Shown: positions 10,565-20,791 of the stretch, piece after piece | Numbering within the stretch: position 1 is the stretch's first letter | Layout of the letters: each line of letters starts with the position of its first letter | Assembly (NCBI RefSeq): GCF_902764455.1 | Contig: NZ_CACWVY010000003.1 | Span: 19,548 to 83,547 of the forward strand | Origin: an uncultured Methanobrevibacter sp. | GTDB taxonomy: Archaea > Methanobacteriota > Methanobacteria > Methanobacteriales > Methanobacteriaceae | Direction of reading: 5' to 3' | Length of the DNA: 64,000 nt | The notes under the pieces: generated by a model | Databases searched by the model: none | Told to the model about the DNA's origin: nothing | What the model saw: only the letters and a program-made list of their open reading frames with translations | Made by a program: the position numbers and the translations under genes

Positions 10565-10947
10565 ATGCTTCCCACTTAAAATATTAAACAAATTACTATA
10601 TAAATTTTAAACAATGAATTTTAATGATGATGAAAAAACAATTGGCTAAAAAAAAATTTCATCAATTAATTTTTAGAGTAAAACCCCCATATAATATTGA
10701 ATCTAAAAAACCAAAAAACCAAACCCTCAATTAACTATTGCCAGAAACTATAATTAAAATTTGAAATTACATCAAAAGATTTAAACATATTTTTTAAGTA
10801 TTTTTTAAAAGCAATCTATGAAAATATTAATTATTATACTAAAAACAAATTATTTTACTTTCGAATAACATTTTTAACCAGCATAATTATTAAAATTATA
10901 ACAATATCCATTTAAAATTACCAAAAACAGTTGTTGATTGAAATATA

Positions 10948-10961
10948 TTAGGAATGCCTAA
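10948..10961. promoter_or_regulatory. DtxR/IdeR-family metal box upstream of feoB (distal)
   Basis: Palindrome TTAGG-AATG-CCTAA. Confidence 0.7.
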
Positions 10962-10996
10962 AAATTTAAATAGTATTAAAGACAATTATATAAATG

Positions 10997-11012
10997 TTTA
11001 GGTTTACCTAAA
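10997..11012. promoter_or_regulatory. DtxR/IdeR-family metal box upstream of feoB (proximal, just after TATA)
   Basis: Palindrome TTTAGG-TTTA-CCTAAA directly downstream of TTATATAAA (10986-10994). Confidence 0.75.
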
Positions 11013-11119
11013 TTATAGTCATGTATTTTTAACGAACGAATATGGCTAAATTTTCGAGGAATATAATATTTCAAAAAAATATTATTCCAAATTTTTTAAT
11101 TAAAACGGGAGAATGGTTA

Positions 11120-13138
11120 ATGACAGAATTAATTGTAGGATTAGCAGGAAACCCCAATGTGGGTAAAACTACTGTCTTCAATCGATTGACTGGAATGCGC
11201 CAGCATGTAGGTAACTGGCCCGGAAAAACCGTGGAAAAAGCAGAGGGTCACTTTTCCCACGGAAACTATAACTATGACGTTATAGATTTGCCGGGAAATT
11301 ACGCATTGAGCGCACATTCTATGGAAGAAATCGTATCAAGAGATTTCATCGTAGATGACTCCTCAGATGCAATCGTGAATGTAGTAGATGCTGCTAATTT
11401 AGAACGAAATTTATATTTAACAGTACAAATGATGGAATTAGGTGCTAACCTTGTATTAGCCCTTAACATGAACGATTTTGCAAAGAAAAAAGATCATATC
11501 ATAGACATTGATTTGATGAGTGAACTTTTAGGATTTCCAGTAATTGAAATCAATGCTAAAACTGGAGACGGATTTGACGAACTGTTAAACACCGTTGAAA
11601 AACAATCCAAAAATCCAATCAATTCCAGTGAAAAATTATCCTATGGTGATGAACTAAGAGAGCATCTTGGTGAATTACAGGAATTAATTGAAAAAGATAA
11701 AAATCTGTTGGATGTGCCTTCAGTCTGGACTGCAATAAAGTTACTTGAAAGGGATTCAATAGTTATCCAAAAAGTTCAAAGCTCTCCTCAAAGTTCCGCT
11801 ATAATGGCTGAAACAGACCGTGTAGCAGGCCACCTCCAATCAGTATATAATGAAGGTGCAGAGGAAGTTATTGCAAATGCAAGATATGCATTTATCGACG
11901 GTTTGATGGCCGAAGCTGTAAAAAAACCGAGTGTTGAAAAAGAAACCGTAACTGACAGAATAGATAAAATTGTAACAAATAGGCTTCTCGCCCCATTTAT
12001 ATTCTTAGGAGTAATGTTTCTCTTATTCCATTTGACATTTACAATAGCAACACCATTTTGTGATTTTATTGATGAATGGTTTGGATGGTTAGGAGAATAT
12101 CTGGTAGCCTCTGTTGGAAATGAAATGTTAGGTTCATTCCTCCAAAACGGACTTATCGGAGGTGTAGGAGGAGTTCTTGTATTCTTACCGCAAATTATTC
12201 TTATGTTTTTATTCTTAAGCATACTGGAAGACAGTGGTTATCTAGCAAGAGCCGCTTTCACTTTAGATAAAGTCATGCACGCAATTGTAGGTCTTCACGG
12301 AAAAGCTTTCATTCCAATGATTTTAGGATTCGGTTGTGGAGTGCCTGCAGTTATGGCAACAAGAACCATGGAAAATGAATCTGACCGTCTGCTTGCAATG
12401 ATGCTTATTCCATTCATGTCATGTACAGCAAGACTGCCAATTTACTCAATTTTTATCGCAGCATTCTTTACAGCAAACAAAAGTCTAATTTTATTATCAA
12501 TCTATATATTAGGTATAGTTGTGGCACTTATTGTTGCAGGTATCCTTAAAAGAACAATGTTTAAAGGAATGTCCGCACCATTTGTTATGGAACTTCCAAC
12601 ATACAAGATCCCATCTCTAAAAGGTGTTTTATTACACACTTGGGATAAAACTAAAGGTTTCTTAAGAAAAGCAGGTACTATCATTCTTGTTTCTGCAATC
12701 ATAATCTGGATTTTAAGTTACTTGCCATTTGGTGTGGAATACGGATCACAGGAAAGTATACTTGGTATGATAGGTAGTGCAATAGCCCCTATTTTTGCTC
12801 CGCTTGGTTTTTCAACCTGGCAAGCAGGTATTGCAATCCTTACAGGTTTAGTTGCAAAAGAAGTTGTAGTATCAACATTTACCACATTAGGTGGACTTGA
12901 AGAAGATGATGAGGAAGGAACTGTCGCATTAGTTCAAGACTTGTTCACACCACTATCTGCATATTCATTCATGGCATTCTGTTTATTATACGTGCCTTGT
13001 TTTGCAGCTATTGGAGCAATCAAACAAGAAACCAACAGCTGGAAATGGCCATTGACAATGTCAGCCATTACATTAGTGACTGCTTATATTGTAGCATTCC
13101 TAATCTACAATGTTGGTTTACTTGCAGGATTCGGATAA
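11120..13138 (+). CDS. feoB: Ferrous iron transport protein B
   Basis: GNPNVGKT (G1), VGNWPGKT (G2), DLPG (G3), NMND; GFGCGVP and PFMSCTARL; ATG at 11120 after GGGAGA. Confidence 0.97.
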   Translation: MTELIVGLAGNPNVGKTTVFNRLTGMRQHVGNWPGKTVEKAEGHFSHGNYNYDVIDLPGNYALSAHSMEEIVSRDFIVDDSSDAIVNVVDAANLERNLYLTVQMMELGANLVLALNMNDFAKKKDHIIDIDLMSELLGFPVIEINAKTGDGFDELLNTVEKQSKNPINSSEKLSYGDELREHLGELQELIEKDKNLLDVPSVWTAIKLLERDSIVIQKVQSSPQSSAIMAETDRVAGHLQSVYNEGAEEVIANARYAFIDGLMAEAVKKPSVEKETVTDRIDKIVTNRLLAPFIFLGVMFLLFHLTFTIATPFCDFIDEWFGWLGEYLVASVGNEMLGSFLQNGLIGGVGGVLVFLPQIILMFLFLSILEDSGYLARAAFTLDKVMHAIVGLHGKAFIPMILGFGCGVPAVMATRTMENESDRLLAMMLIPFMSCTARLPIYSIFIAAFFTANKSLILLSIYILGIVVALIVAGILKRTMFKGMSAPFVMELPTYKIPSLKGVLLHTWDKTKGFLRKAGTIILVSAIIIWILSYLPFGVEYGSQESILGMIGSAIAPIFAPLGFSTWQAGIAILTGLVAKEVVVSTFTTLGGLEEDDEEGTVALVQDLFTPLSAYSFMAFCLLYVPCFAAIGAIKQETNSWKWPLTMSAITLVTAYIVAFLIYNVGLLAGFG

Positions 13139-13158: not shown

Positions 13159-13389
13159 ATGACAAAAACTTTAAAGGATGTAAAACCTGGTGAAACAGTC
13201 ACATTGGTAAAATACCATAATGACGGAGATGTGGATTTAAGAAGACACCTGCTGGGAATGGGTTTTGTTAAAGGAGCAAAAATTACTGTTAAAAAAGTTG
13301 CTACCTTAGGCGATCCCATTGAAATGAACATCAAAGGATATGATGTTTGTCTTCGAAAAGATGAAGCAAAAAATATTGAAGTGGAATAA
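13159..13389 (+). CDS. feoA: Ferrous iron transport protein A
   Basis: RRHLLGMGFVKGAKITVKKVATLGDPIE..LRKDEA FeoA SH3-like pattern. Confidence 0.93.
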   Translation: MTKTLKDVKPGETVTLVKYHNDGDVDLRRHLLGMGFVKGAKITVKKVATLGDPIEMNIKGYDVCLRKDEAKNIEVE

Positions 13390-13429: not shown

Positions 13430-13639
13430 ATGAAATGTCGTATTTGTGGTTTTGAATTTGATGAGAAAAAATTGAAAAACCGTGGGTGCGTTGGCTGTGG
13501 AAAACATTCCGGATGCAAACAGGTTCATTGTCCAAATTGCGGATTTGGAAACCATCCGGAACTTGAAGAAGAATTTGAATTTATTAACAAATTGAAAAAT
13601 AAAATAAATAGAAAAAAAGAAAACAAATCATTTTTTTAA
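13430..13639 (+). CDS. Small Cys-rich Feo-associated protein
   Basis: CRIC..CVGC..C..CPNC (7 Cys in about 40 aa); GAGG RBS; inside the feo operon. Confidence 0.75.
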   Translation: MKCRICGFEFDEKKLKNRGCVGCGKHSGCKQVHCPNCGFGNHPELEEEFEFINKLKNKINRKKENKSFF

Positions 13640-13654
13640 AGGGAGATTGTTAAA

Positions 13655-13921
13655 ATGAATCGTGATGAAATTATTAATAAATGTTATGAGCACAAACATG
13701 CGTTAATTTTTGCAGCAGGAATCGCTACTGCAATTGTCGGTAAAAAAATATTAGAATCAAAAACCGTGAAAGATGCTGCAACACAAGGCATGGCATCCGT
13801 AATGTCTGCTAAAAAAGATGCTGAAGAATGTTTCCAAGACATGAAAGAAAATGCAGAAGACATTGTGGTTGATGCAAACGCAGAAACTAAAAAAGAGATT
13901 TATATAGAAGCAAAAGAATAA
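13655..13921 (+). CDS. Small protein of the type that precedes P1B-ATPases (DUF1490/DUF6110-like)
   Basis: N-terminal FAAGIATAIVGKKIL helix then a charged helix; GGGAG RBS; directly before the ATPase. Confidence 0.6.
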   Translation: MNRDEIINKCYEHKHALIFAAGIATAIVGKKILESKTVKDAATQGMASVMSAKKDAEECFQDMKENAEDIVVDANAETKKEIYIEAKE

Positions 13922-13945: not shown

Positions 13946-16093
13946 ATGAAATACAAAGTAATGTATGATAACAAAACTCGATTAAGAGTTCGTTCAGGCC
14001 AATGGGCTTTCACCAAAGAAGAAGGTTATGGCCTCGCTTCATTACTTTTAAATCAAAGTTTTATCCATGAAGTATACACTTCCCATAGAAACGGAAGTAT
14101 TTTAATATACTACGACGGAGATATTGAAAGCAAAAAGAAGATTTTCAATATCCTTGATGGTATTACATTAGATGATTTGTTTGAAGCAGAGCCGACTCAA
14201 GCTCAAACTTCAAGGGAAATCACCGACGAGTTTTATCTCAAATTATCCAAAATGATTTTTAATAGAGTTCTTTATAGAATATTCCTACCGATGCCTATTA
14301 GAAATGCATTGACAATTTATAATGCAGCAGAATATATCTGGAATGGTTTGGACAGTTTGACCAGCTTTAGAGTTGATGTTGCACTTCTCGACGGTGCGGC
14401 AGTAACCGGAGCACTACTGCAAAAACAGTACAAACCAGCAAGTTCAATGATGTTCTTATTGTCAATCTCCGATGCGCTTGAAGACTACACAATACAAAAA
14501 GCTAAAAGTACACTTAAAGACAGTTTGGCTTTAAATATAGATACTGTATGGGTAGTAGGAGAAGACGGTGAAGAAAAACAATGCCCTGCTGTTGATATAG
14601 ATAAGGGAGATAAAATTAAAGTCCACATGGGCGATGTGATACCGGTTGATGGAAAAGTAATTGAAGGAGAAGCAATGGTTAATGAAGCTTCCATGACTGG
14701 AGAGCCATTAGCAACCCATAAAAGACCTGGAAAAACAGTTCATGCAGGAACTGTTATAGAAGAAGGTAATCTGATAGTTGAAGTTTATTCAATGAACAAG
14801 GAAACCCGTTTAAATAAAATAATCGATTTAATTGAAAATTCAGAAGAGTTGAAGGCAGATACACAAAGCAAAGCTGAAAAACTTGCCGATTCAATTGTTC
14901 CATACAGTTTCCTTGCAACAGCTTTAACCTACTTAATTACCGGAAATTCAACAAAAGCATTATCCGTATTGATGGTTGATTTTTCATGTGCCATTAAGCT
15001 AACAACCCCATTATCCATCATATCTGCAATGCGAGAAGCATCAGACAATAGAATGATGGTAAAAGGAGGTAAATTTTTAGAAAACTATGCAAATGCAGAC
15101 ACCATCATATTCGATAAAACAGGAACACTAACAAAAGCAACTCCAAAGGTTGTTGAAGTAGTTCCTATGTCCAGACGATACAAACGTGATGACATTCTAA
15201 GAATGGCCGCATGTATTGAAGAGCATTTCGCACACAGTATTGCAACTGCCATAGTAAAACAGGCTGAGAAGGAAGGCCTCAAACATGAAGAAGACCACAG
15301 TGAAGTGGAATACATTGTAGCACATGGCATTGTAACCGAATATGACGGAAAACGTGCAGTAATAGGATCAAAACACTTCTTATTTGATGATGAGAAAGTG
15401 AAAGCAACCAAAGCCCAGGAAAAGAAAATGGCTAAAAAAGCAGCAGAACACTCTGTAGTTTATCTGGGCATAGACGGAAAACTTGAAGGCTTAATCTGCA
15501 TTGATGATCCCGTACGTGAAGAAGCAAAATATGTAATAGAAGAACTAAAAGAGTTAGGCATTGAAAATGTCATAATGCTTACAGGAGACAGTGAAAGCGG
15601 TGCAAAAGCTAGTGCTAAAGCATTAGGCATCACAGATTATAAATCACAAGTTCTTCCAGAAGATAAATCAAGAATTGTAGAAGAGTTAAAACAAGACGGA
15701 AAAACCGTCATTATGGTCGGAGACGGAATCAATGATTCCCCGGCACTTGCAGCAGCTGATGTATCTGTTTCAATGAAACATTCATCAGATATTGCACGTG
15801 AAGTAGCAGACATATCATTACTGTCCGACGATTTATATGACCTCGTAACACTCAGGAAACTAAGTGTTGGAATGTTGGATAAAATCAACAAAAATTACCA
15901 CAATATTGTTGCAGTAAATGGCAGCCTTCTTGTTTTAGGTGTTTTAGGCATAATTCCTCCATCAACTTCATCAATGATACATAACCTATCTACCATGTTG
16001 TTTGGAGTAATGAGCACTAAATCAGTTTTAACTGATAAAGATTTTTCAAGAGATATAGAAGTAGAAGCTATTGAAGTAGCTGATATTTCTTAA
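13946..16093 (+). CDS. Heavy-metal P1B-type ATPase with SCA motif (P1B-6 subclass)
   Basis: SMTGEP, DFSCAIKL, DKTGTLT, MLTGD, GDGINDSPAL, HNLST. Confidence 0.9.
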   Translation: MKYKVMYDNKTRLRVRSGQWAFTKEEGYGLASLLLNQSFIHEVYTSHRNGSILIYYDGDIESKKKIFNILDGITLDDLFEAEPTQAQTSREITDEFYLKLSKMIFNRVLYRIFLPMPIRNALTIYNAAEYIWNGLDSLTSFRVDVALLDGAAVTGALLQKQYKPASSMMFLLSISDALEDYTIQKAKSTLKDSLALNIDTVWVVGEDGEEKQCPAVDIDKGDKIKVHMGDVIPVDGKVIEGEAMVNEASMTGEPLATHKRPGKTVHAGTVIEEGNLIVEVYSMNKETRLNKIIDLIENSEELKADTQSKAEKLADSIVPYSFLATALTYLITGNSTKALSVLMVDFSCAIKLTTPLSIISAMREASDNRMMVKGGKFLENYANADTIIFDKTGTLTKATPKVVEVVPMSRRYKRDDILRMAACIEEHFAHSIATAIVKQAEKEGLKHEEDHSEVEYIVAHGIVTEYDGKRAVIGSKHFLFDDEKVKATKAQEKKMAKKAAEHSVVYLGIDGKLEGLICIDDPVREEAKYVIEELKELGIENVIMLTGDSESGAKASAKALGITDYKSQVLPEDKSRIVEELKQDGKTVIMVGDGINDSPALAAADVSVSMKHSSDIAREVADISLLSDDLYDLVTLRKLSVGMLDKINKNYHNIVAVNGSLLVLGVLGIIPPSTSSMIHNLSTMLFGVMSTKSVLTDKDFSRDIEVEAIEVADIS

Positions 16094-19182: not shown

Positions 19183-19242
19183 TTAAACTATTCCCATATA
19201 TTTGTGATTTAAAAAAAAAAGAATTATTTTATTAAAAGGTGT

Positions 19243-19353
19243 TTAATGGCAATTGCAGCCAAAAAAGAAACACCAGAGCTTTTGCAAGATTCCTTTTTTC
19301 TTTTTGGAATCTTTACTTTTTTCAACAGAACAACAATCTGCAGTGTTTGCCAT
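19243..19353 (-). CDS. 36-aa Cys-rich small protein, not in the ORF track
   Basis: Manual translation MANTADCCSVEKSKDSKKKKGILQKLWCFFFGCNCH*; strong RBS GTGGAGGGA 4 nt before ATG; metal box and TATA-like element upstream. Confidence 0.65.
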   Translation of the reverse strand: MANTADCCSVEKSKDSKKKKGILQKLWCFFFGCNCH

Positions 19354-19381
19354 AAAATCCCTCCACTTTTTAAATTAAATT

Positions 19382-19397
19382 TTTAGGAAAACCTAAA
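19382..19397. promoter_or_regulatory. DtxR/IdeR-family metal box upstream of the small Cys-rich ORF
   Basis: Palindrome TTTAGG-AAAA-CCTAAA, same geometry as the feoB boxes, between a minus-strand TTAAATATA and the RBS. Confidence 0.7.
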
Positions 19398-19791
19398 TAT
19401 TTTATGTTAATATATTTAACTTGATAACTTATAAATGTTTGCTTATACATCAAATAGTCGAAATAGAATTGATTTTTAATACATTTGCTGTTAATGTAAA
19501 AGTTGACTCATAATATTGAAAGAAAAAAGATATTACTTCATTTAATTAACGTTGAAATTAATTATTTTATAGGTCAAAATAAGACTTGTAGAATATAAAT
19601 GTTAAACACTAATTACCGACAAATCATCAAAAATTTCAATTTATTAATTTAATCAGCAAATAATACTTTAAAAAAGATATAAACATGTAAGATTGTACTT
19701 ACATTCAAAAAATTTTATATATTATTTATTAGAAACAAATTATTAAGTTTAATATCTAAAAAGACTACAAAAAAACTAACGAGGAATTAAA

Positions 19792-19974
19792 ATGAAAATG
19801 CATAAAATTTGTCCAAGATGCGGATCTAAAAATGTTGACTGGATTATCCCTCAAAACTGGTCACAATGCTGTTGTAAGGACTGTGACTACACAGGACCAA
19901 TCATTGAAGGAAATGATGAACTTGCAGAGGAAATCCATGAAGCATACTTAGAATCTTTAAAAGACAAAGAATAA
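19792..19974 (+). CDS. Small zinc-ribbon protein
   Basis: CPRCG...CKDC; GAGG RBS. Confidence 0.75.
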   Translation: MKMHKICPRCGSKNVDWIIPQNWSQCCCKDCDYTGPIIEGNDELAEEIHEAYLESLKDKE

Positions 19975-19978
19975 GGAC

Positions 19979-20791
19979 GTGAGAAATATGTTAGGATTAA
20001 ATAATAGAAATCAGGAAAATGAAGCAATCATAAAACCTCCAAGCAGCGATTCATATTCTATGATTTCCACCATATTTGCAAAAAACAATGAAATAAGCAT
20101 CAAAACATTATCACTCACAATACTCGATTTAATTAACAAAGATCAAATCAAATGCGATATTGATTTGGATGATACATATGAAGTAGGTAAAAAATTAACC
20201 CCTGAAGACATGGAAGTCATGAAAAAAATAACACTTAGAATTGCAAATAAAGGAGAATTAAAAACATCAGAAACCCTAGCAATTAACTTACTTAAAAATT
20301 TGAATAAAAATAAAAAATTCAACTTGAAGGCAATGGCAAAACAAACCCATAATGCTGCAAATGCCAACAAATTTGAAAAAGACCTTGCCGAATATGTCAA
20401 AGCCATTGAAAATGAAAATAATTATGATGGCAAAAACTACAAGGACATACTGGAAAACGGCAAATTAACAAAAAAAGGAAAAGAACTTAAAAAAGAATGG
20501 CAAAATTACCAAAATTACTTAAAATCACAGAATTTAACTGAAAAATACCCTCCGCAATCAGCAGAAGAAAATTCAATGCAAATCCTTTACGGTGCATGTT
20601 TTGACATTGAAAAAGATACATTGAAAATAAGGGAAAATAACACTTCTTTAACCAATTTTGTTGATAAGGACGGGTATAAATTATTGAACATAATTTTCAA
20701 TAATGCATTATTAAATGTGACTGAAAAAAGACGAGGAGATGGGATATTTTACGGAGTAAATGATAAATATACCATTCCCGGTGGAGGATAA
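19979..20791 (+). CDS. Hypothetical protein resembling the soluble C-terminal region of DUF2207 proteins
   Basis: TILDLINKDQI, LTKKGKELKKEWQNYQNYL, ILYGACFDI patterns. Confidence 0.5.
   Translation: MRNMLGLNNRNQENEAIIKPPSSDSYSMISTIFAKNNEISIKTLSLTILDLINKDQIKCDIDLDDTYEVGKKLTPEDMEVMKKITLRIANKGELKTSETLAINLLKNLNKNKKFNLKAMAKQTHNAANANKFEKDLAEYVKAIENENNYDGKNYKDILENGKLTKKGKELKKEWQNYQNYLKSQNLTEKYPPQSAEENSMQILYGACFDIEKDTLKIRENNTSLTNFVDKDGYKLLNIIFNNALLNVTEKRRGDGIFYGVNDKYTIPGGG

Follow-up and report, generated by a model that had tools for sequence, protein, structure and literature searches.

The stretch of DNA analysed here, to which we refer as the window, comprises 64,000 nucleotides (nt) from the genome of an uncultured Methanobrevibacter sp. 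(contig NZ_CACWVY010000003.1). Its minus strand carries a short open reading frame (ORF) of 36 codons that we propose to be a real microprotein gene under a DtxR-type iron operator, displaced from an ancestral unit in which a structured RNA, the peptide gene and a gene for a DUF4012 membrane protein follow one another. Judging from sequence comparisons, we give this explanation as a whole a probability of about 0.8. In the rumen and the human gut, methane is produced mainly by members of Methanobrevibacter, which are rich in iron-sulfur enzymes. To our knowledge, the iron-starvation response of this genus is essentially undescribed, and we know of no iron-responsive small RNA (sRNA) regulator demonstrated so far in Archaea.

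An initial annotation of the window had described this ORF together with a GGAGG ribosome-binding site, a palindrome, and a TATA-like element further upstream, and direct inspection of the sequence finds all of them in place (Table 1). The encoded peptide contains five Cys among its 36 residues as well as a terminal His, and it is laid out as an N-terminal CC pair, a Lys-rich middle, a predicted helix at residues 20 to 31, and a C-terminal FFFGCNCH. The element formed by the B recognition element (BRE) and the TATA box falls just beyond the range given in the annotation, and the distance of its TATA box from the palindrome equals that between the TATA box and the promoter-distal “box 2” in an alignment of the promoters of relatives, box 2 being the counterpart of the window palindrome in the canonical promoter. 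With this spacing of about 38 nt, and with transcription expected to begin around 25 nt past the TATA box, the operator would coincide with the start site or follow it immediately, an arrangement that fits a repressor. When at most one mismatch to TTTAGG-N4-CCTAAA is allowed, the window holds three such palindromes (at 10947, which begins with ATTAGG and has one mismatch, at 10997, and at 19382), while shuffled versions of the window contain a mean of 0.33 and none of 100 shuffles contains three. Two of these sites precede feoB, as the annotation had also pointed out, and they flank a TATA box there.

Several observations indicate that the ORF is translated into a protein that has been retained by selection. 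A translated search detected an open frame with similarity to this one in 15 of 24 congeneric genomes; a subsequent profile search finds the peptide gene in 34 of 40 genomes of the same genus and in six neighboring genera of the family, and altogether the frame stays open in about 70 genomes. Nearly every genome has a single match, and the exceptions resemble tandem duplicates; such tandem genes, lying approximately 180 nt apart, are found at loci L050 (genome G046) and L047 (G170). Among 26 genes of the subfamily to which we refer as A, pairwise differences at the first, second, and third codon positions number 1266, 910, and 3224, respectively, and 49% of the differing codons are synonymous in the frame proposed, as opposed to 7 to 10% in the two shifted frames. 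In addition, the invariant F, G, and C columns are each encoded by two or three different codons. As far as sequence comparison can tell, this ORF is under purifying selection as a protein, and because conservation extends to the frame, the Cys tail, and the codon pattern alike, we regard it as a true small-protein gene, just as had been suggested at the outset.

Two forms of the peptide can be distinguished. Subfamily A follows the pattern (K)PKCC...KKSILKKIW[C/T]FFFGC[N/K/R]C[H] or ends in ...NFFFGCCK(NKK), and its N-terminal CC, which most members of the family therefore have, is near-invariant. Subfamily B reads MDNMxEARRKMHERD...KKIKNFFFGCCKNK and lacks the N-terminal Cys pair. Both share the tail motif F-F-G-C-(x)-C, which is invariant in the family, with the F, G, C, and C columns identical in the two subfamilies and the flanking F and K positions conserved at 90% or more. 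The Cys pattern originally highlighted, with five Cys and a terminal His, holds for the window copy, while across the family only the last two Cys are invariant. The frame itself recurs in the 34 genomes mentioned above, and the palindrome at most peptide loci, as described below. The two subfamilies appear to be mutually exclusive, which suggests that they are functionally equivalent. At locus L080 of genome G156, a decayed subfamily-A ORF (with an ...IFQKKIWCFF-like remnant) lies about 100 to 150 nt past the RNA hairpin, and an intact subfamily-B gene is located elsewhere in the same genome, in what looks like a replacement of one form by the other.

No entry of Pfam or NCBIfam matches the peptide or five of its relatives, even at E values of up to 10. 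A search of 5.8 billion proteins recovered 140 relatives, and every named one is a “hypothetical protein” of Methanobrevibacter. The family is uncharacterized and confined to Methanobrevibacter and neighboring Methanobacteriaceae, and annotation pipelines either miss or leave unnamed an entire regulated family of small proteins.

The palindrome belongs to a set of sites spread over the genome, in which there are 19 exact copies of TTAGG-N4-CCTAA with the consensus TTTAGGYATRCCTAAA. These boxes often come in pairs, 50 to 70 bp apart around a TATA box. Downstream of them lie both feoB genes, genes for an ABC transporter with an exporter-type fold, for a Vut_1 transporter, and for a HAD phosphatase, and two regions without ORFs. 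The box-TATA-box layout of the feoB promoter is also that of the RNA and peptide unit in relatives. Within 500 nt upstream of the peptide gene, and again with at most one mismatch, at least one box is present at 39 of 49 distinct loci and at least two at 26 of the 49, compared with a background frequency of 0.014 per 500 nt. Loci of subfamily B within the genus have a single box directly 5′ of the ORF, as does the window copy. In Haloferax volcanii, chromatin immunoprecipitation sequencing of the DtxR-family iron regulator TroR yielded the motif TTTAGGC-NNN-CCTAAA, often in tandem copies, and TroR was found to repress uptake genes when iron is replete, while the manganese-type motif of SirR reads differently, as TTTwGAnnnnTCwAAA (PMC10783522). 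The genome from which the window derives encodes one clear DtxR homologue, a protein of 238 amino acids with Fe_dep_repress, Fe_dep_repr_C, and FeoA/SH3-like domains.

Thus, the early proposal of a metal-repressor box belonging to an iron regulon is borne out by the recurrence of the palindrome at peptide loci and feoB and by its match to the TroR motif. On this comparative evidence, we take the palindrome to be the conserved operator type of an iron-responsive DtxR/TroR-type regulon and to mark the iron-uptake genes. As judged from its promoter, the peptide gene is metal-regulated and almost certainly iron-regulated, and its repression by iron at the level of transcription is a well-supported prediction. 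What we infer, beyond the motif itself, is that a repressor binds the box, in which direction it acts, and which metal it senses.

Boxes of this type also precede other genes. A membrane methyltransferase of the PEMT/ICMT family, with 159 amino acids, counts as a conserved member of the regulon and has a single box at about -45 in 12 of the 15 orthologues with a callable ORF (loci L109-L123). No more than 16 of 41 congeners have this gene, and the window's own genome retains it as a pseudogene interrupted by an in-frame TAA (G000 C9:5850-6278, minus strand), a second fragment lying behind another box (C52:8160-8291, plus strand). In the same genome, an exact box at C82:205, on a 2-kb contig, is followed at a distance of 108 nt by a DDE transposase gene; here an insertion sequence may have landed behind a regulon promoter or may itself bear an operator.

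An alignment of the regions upstream of the peptide gene in relatives reveals a canonical array consisting of box 1, a BRE/TATA element, box 2, an RNA-like element of about 170 nt, and the peptide ORF. The RNA precedes the ORF by 25 to 130 nt behind the same box pair in 28 of the 49 distinct loci, and in many species, the gap between its last hairpin and the ORF is only 25 to 35 nt, which is too short for a separate promoter, so that RNA and ORF must share a transcript in those species. In 22 of around 30 subfamily-A loci, the peptide gene is followed by the gene for the DUF4012 membrane protein (239 amino acids), and it thus stands between this gene and the structured RNA. The DUF4012 protein is N-terminally anchored (loci L002-L048 and G000 C40:11996-12715, minus strand), and its gene still adjoins the RNA after loss of the peptide.

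The window copy departs from this arrangement. It lacks box 1 and the RNA, retains the TATA box and the distal box, and sits between a MacB-type ABC permease and a Lar-like gene, a position that is unique among the loci surveyed. Its own genome keeps the RNA and DUF4012 on another contig (C40), where the peptide is absent. We therefore read the ancestral order as box-TATA-box, structured RNA, peptide, and DUF4012, and the window copy as displaced from it, as comparison of the loci indicates. The description of the gene as “standalone” accordingly suits the displaced copy and not the canonical loci, in which RNA and DUF4012 flank it. Similarly, the link to feo that had been drawn from proximity is not conserved: among the loci surveyed, only in this genome is the peptide within 6 kb of feoAB. 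The original figure of 3 kb from the feo operon is correct only if the operon extends through the P1B-ATPase gene (which ends at 16093), and the end of feoA, at 13389, is 5.9 kb away. Since the usual context of the gene lies elsewhere and the window copy is displaced, its nearness to feoAB, the P1B-ATPase, and a non-ribosomal peptide synthetase (NRPS) cluster is best regarded as incidental.

The RNA attached to the peptide gene in relatives deserves attention in its own right. It forms three hairpins with conserved CU-rich single-stranded blocks, ACUACACUCCGAUU and CAUAUAACUACUCUCA, between them. Its core of 26 to 27 nt, ATAACTACTCTC-N-GAAATTAAATATG, is present in 27 of 40 congeners, in a single copy each, whereas a control with the reversed pattern gave no match, and it is conserved above the level of the peptide's own coding sequence. 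The second helix keeps its pairing through compensatory changes. Moreover, the RNA persists where the peptide is absent or located elsewhere, and the next gene is convergent in genome G248 and at the C33 paralogue of the window's own genome, which implies that the RNA can be transcribed independently. The RNA part is thus conserved and structured independently of the ORF, as expected of a dual-function sRNA.

A related RNA of about 190 nt, to which we refer as type C33, is present in 58 of 61 congeners in one to five copies each, often just upstream of the peptide unit. The box pair stands at fixed positions in 26 of its 30 full-length matches (23 distinct sequences). Its fold comprises four hairpins, of which the last reads GGUGUUU-AACUCUCCUC-AAACACC, with AACUCUCCUC as the loop and a U-run behind it. 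Of the cells in the consensus structure, 98.9% are paired, compared with 31 to 48% when the partners are slid, and there are 19 double-change cells, compared with 6.1 in shuffles, none of 500 shuffles reaching 19. The window's own genome has two ORF-less, CU-rich structured RNAs behind box-TATA-box promoters (C40:12830-13230, minus strand, and C33:16624-16905, plus strand), as well as partial copies at C33:20907-21069 and C40:6544-6637. Neither the attached RNA nor the stand-alone copies matched a relevant Rfam family at E values of up to 1. We looked for targets with RNAduplex, using eight CU-rich seeds against the 2324 start regions of the same genome, and by anchored pairing across the Shine-Dalgarno sequence, spacer, and AUG. 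In these scans, generic Shine-Dalgarno pairing dominated, with no excess over reversed or shuffled seeds among the 2324 start regions, and Fe-S proteins appeared among the top matches only as weak, uncorrected hints. In our view, the box-gated, multi-copy RNA is a candidate archaeal family of iron-responsive sRNAs, and one member carrying a microprotein ORF is, on the evidence of the genomes compared, a new element.

The sequence of the peptide suggests, without specifying, what it might do. Family members have 32 to 49 amino acids and net charges of +4 to +9 (+4 in the window copy). The N-terminus is disordered, and an AlphaFold2 model based on a 16-sequence alignment contains a single helix at residues 20 to 31, with a mean predicted local distance difference test (pLDDT) score of 60 that rises to about 77 for residues 21 to 30. 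This helix is amphipathic at its start (KGILQKLW) and ends in FFF, after which come two invariant thiols, one or two residues apart, and then usually H or K. A plausible sequence of events can be constructed from these features. The iron-bound DtxR-type repressor would block the TATA promoter at the start-site region; in iron-starved cells, expression of the peptide would accompany that of feoAB, the ABC transporter, the PEMT/ICMT-like methyltransferase, and the CU-rich small RNAs. The Lys-rich helix and the FFF patch could then place the peptide at the membrane surface, where the C-terminal vicinal thiols, with the N-terminal CC or a second chain, might bind Fe(II), an Fe-S unit, or a membrane partner, so that iron would be acquired or allocated under scarcity. 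A membrane-peripheral thiol peptide acting in iron limitation is our best guess for the function, and a tentative one, against which we would still bet; on this reading, the peptide would be functionally analogous to small proteins of metal regulons such as MntS. Two roles that the initial annotation had listed, an Fe-S or metal chaperone and a modulator of a transporter, are conceivable too.

Some points weigh against the explanation that we favor, or at least against parts of it. No box with at most one mismatch was found at the peptide loci of the genera g9, g17, and g20. That the operator represses rather than activates is deduced from promoter geometry only, and the metal specificity of the repressor from the content of the regulon and the precedent of Haloferax. 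The confidence of the structural model is low, and the genomes compared reveal no physical link of the peptide to Feo or any transporter. Subfamily B, moreover, does without the N-terminal CC, and therefore a four-Cys site within one chain cannot be a universal mechanism.

Alternative explanations differ mainly in what they make of the ORF, the metal, and the Cys tail. Given that the ORF is very short and often lies at the 3′ end of a structured RNA, it might be an untranslated frame, whether a chance ORF or part of a non-coding transcript; this is strongly disfavored by a frame open in so many genomes, by the strong excess of synonymous and third-position changes, by an amino-acid motif that stays invariant while its codons vary, and by a good Shine-Dalgarno sequence at the proper spacing. 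The FFF and Cys codons also brought to mind an attenuation leader peptide, which we rejected because the residues are kept with varying codons and because no co-oriented downstream gene follows at the window or at any subfamily-B copy. A precursor of a ribosomally synthesized and post-translationally modified peptide or a metallophore was likewise set aside, as DUF4012 is the only conserved gene within 1.5 kb and no modifying enzyme is conserved there; the NRPS and MATE cluster 2.3 kb away is tied to the peptide only in this genome. Regarding the metal, the box might answer to a manganese, zinc, or nickel regulator, with the peptide responding to another metal, since the DtxR family includes Mn sensors of the MntR/SirR type and both FeoB-type transporters and the neighboring P1B-ATPase can handle other divalent metals. 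We consider this quite unlikely, as the box equals the TroR motif and is unlike that of SirR, it precedes both feoB genes, and the sole DtxR homologue has the three-domain architecture of DtxR/IdeR with a C-terminal FeoA/SH3-like domain. The initial annotation had also offered a metallothionein-like buffer, in which CC and CxC would sequester an excess of thiophilic metal. Such motifs are typical of metallothioneins, the window copy is Cys-rich, and a heavy-metal P1B-ATPase gene lies 3 kb away. Metallothioneins are, however, recognized by dense and conserved Cys in CC, CxC, or CxxC arrays from which metal-thiolate clusters are built, and this family has two invariant Cys and four common ones, with just two in subfamily B; in addition, an operator over the start region, as at the uptake gene feoB, predicts expression when metal is low, and the ATPase neighborhood is unique to this genome. 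It is hard to credit the buffer on these terms.

The remaining alternatives take the RNA or the methyltransferase as their starting point. The peptide could be the protein arm of an iron-starvation RNA system, either as a basic RNA-binding helper or as the coding part of a dual-function sRNA. The close succession of RNA and ORF in more than half of the distinct loci, the Lys-rich and positively charged character of the peptide, and the persistence of the RNA alone within a box-gated, multi-copy family with CU-rich loops all speak for this, and there is a precedent in FsrA and the Fbp proteins (PMC7430163), with SgrS/SgrT and SR1/SR1P as models of dual function. On the other hand, the invariant part of the peptide, the FFFGCC tail, is hydrophobic and no hallmark of RNA binding; the peptide is unlinked from the RNA in the window genome, at all subfamily-B loci, and in the genera in which the RNA core was not found; and RNA binding by the Fbp proteins themselves is unproven. 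On balance, we think such a role unlikely, and it is the most serious of the competing accounts. A different possibility is that the C-terminal CC or CxC is a signal for lipid or methyl attachment, giving a thioether-lipid anchor that is processed by the co-regulated PEMT/ICMT-like methyltransferase. Tails such as GCCK, GCCKNKK, and GCNCH, following a polybasic stretch, resemble the CC and CXC prenylation motifs of eukaryotes, and the methyltransferase gene has the same type of single box at about the same position as noted above. Nevertheless, that gene is present in a minority of congeners and is a pseudogene here even though the peptide is intact, the termini of the peptide extend past the Cys, no link to a prenyltransferase or CaaX protease was found, and a shared regulon alone does not show a substrate relationship, which together make lipidation very improbable. 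One could go further and combine the two ideas, imagining the box-TATA-box, RNA, and peptide unit as an archaeal dual-function iron-starvation RNA in which the 5′ CU-rich hairpins would silence the ribosome sites of iron-costly mRNAs and the 3′ ORF would make a polybasic microprotein anchored in the membrane by a lipid- or methyl-modified CC/CxC tail at its C-terminus, the modification possibly being the work of the PEMT/ICMT-like enzyme. This is a long shot, and if it were true, the unit would be the first archaeal iron-sparing riboregulator with a protein arm, and its peptides would be a native substrate class for archaeal ICMT homologues.

Comparison with better-known systems helps to place the microprotein that we propose. 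MntS of E. coli has 42 amino acids, is repressed by MntR with Mn, and acts on the exporter MntP. The likeness is that of a tiny protein whose gene is controlled directly by the metal repressor of the corresponding uptake regulon, and which is made when the metal is scarce and influences its allocation; in contrast, MntS has no sequence similarity to the peptide and no Cys tail, and it concerns a different metal in a different domain of life. The FeoB-associated Cys-rich membrane proteins of PF12669, which have about 40 to 60 amino acids with a hydrophobic segment, basic residues, and a terminal Cys cluster, are connected with ferrous-iron uptake and share with the peptide its small size, its hydrophobic and basic segments, and the terminal Cys cluster. 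However, the PF12669 hidden Markov model gave no match at E values of up to 10 for six members of the microprotein family, whose elements run in the opposite order and include no full transmembrane helix, and in relatives the gene does not neighbor feoB.

As regards the regulatory side, the TroR regulon of Haloferax volcanii is similar in its operator, TTTAGG(C)-N3/4-CCTAAA, often with two sites around the promoter, and in its iron-uptake genes, but it belongs to another phylum-level lineage, and neither a microprotein nor small RNAs have been reported in it (PMC10783522); binding in the present case is predicted. In Bacillus subtilis, the Fur-regulated FbpA, FbpB, and FbpC are basic proteins of 29 to 59 amino acids, and FsrA is an iron-sparing sRNA with C-rich motifs directed against ribosome-binding sites (PMC7430163). 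The common ground here is the co-regulation of small basic proteins with an sRNA, which in our case is a candidate. The differences are the lack of homology, the use of Fur instead of a DtxR-type regulator, and a peptide with a hydrophobic Cys tail that is usually fused to the RNA unit. IsrR of Staphylococcus, a Fur-repressed iron-sparing sRNA of an AT-rich genome, has two repressor boxes, three hairpins, and C-rich regions directed against Shine-Dalgarno sequences (PMC9410917). The attached RNA is similar to it in having two boxes, several hairpins, conserved single-stranded C/U-rich regions, an AT-rich host genome, and stems that are conserved in sequence with little covariation. Unlike IsrR and SR1/SR1P, it is archaeal, multi-copy, and gated by a DtxR-type box, and one member has a peptide ORF at its 3′ end. 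Taking these comparisons together, the peptide is best classed as a non-homologous case of the small proteins that occur within metal-repressor regulons, unusually fused to a candidate archaeal iron sRNA.

If the reading that we favor is correct, a conserved microprotein is added to a definable DtxR-type iron regulon and is genetically tied to a candidate family of iron-responsive small RNAs, and methanogens of the rumen and gut appear, from their promoters, to switch the peptide on when iron is short. The parts are short and testable and may be useful in work on metal homeostasis: an operator of 16 bp, a peptide of 36 amino acids, and an RNA of approximately 190 nt.

Table 1. Positions of the microprotein gene, its signals, and the feo region in the window
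Feature	Position	Strand	Details
Microprotein coding sequence	19243-19353 (including stop)	minus	36 codons plus TAA; product MANTADCCSVEKSKDSKKKKGILQKLWCFFFGCNCH
Shine-Dalgarno sequence	19366-19358	minus	GTGGAGGGA; GGAGG core 6 nt 5′ of ATG (sequence reading)
Palindrome TTTAGG-AAAA-CCTAAA	19382-19397		TTTAGGAAAACCTAAA in full; 16 bp, -44 to -29 from ATG; predicted DtxR-family operator
BRE/TATA-like element	19440-19428	minus	aaacaTTTATAAg; TATA box 19429-19435, about 38 nt upstream of the palindrome
T10 run	19211-19220	minus	23 nt past the stop codon of the microprotein ORF; likely terminator
feoB promoter	10947-11012	plus	Box 10947-10962, ATTAGGAATGCCTAAA; TATA about 10987-10995; box 10997-11012, TTTAGGTTTACCTAAA
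feoB	11042-13138	plus	
feoA	end 13389	plus	
Heavy-metal P1B-ATPase gene	13946-16093	plus	

Regarding the remaining features of the region, the T10 run downstream of the microprotein ORF is likely an archaeal oligo-T terminator, a role that we assign from general knowledge of archaeal termination. We rejected the possibility that the palindrome serves the divergent Lar-like gene at 19792, as the distance of 395 nt is too great for an archaeal promoter. This gene (19792-19974, plus strand) is a zinc-ribbon ORF of 60 amino acids whose match to the Lar-type restriction-alleviation proteins falls below threshold (TIGR03655, 26 bits compared with a cut-off of 39.6), and a DUF2207_C membrane protein gene (19979-20791, plus strand) starts 4 nt past it. 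In the feo region, two small genes stand between feoA and the P1B-ATPase: an ORF for 69 amino acids (13430-13639, plus strand) whose eight Cys form four CxxC pairs and for which Pfam has no match, followed by a gene for a DUF6110 protein of 88 amino acids (13655-13921, plus strand). Together with the P1B-ATPase gene, these two genes appear to continue the feoB-feoA transcription unit.

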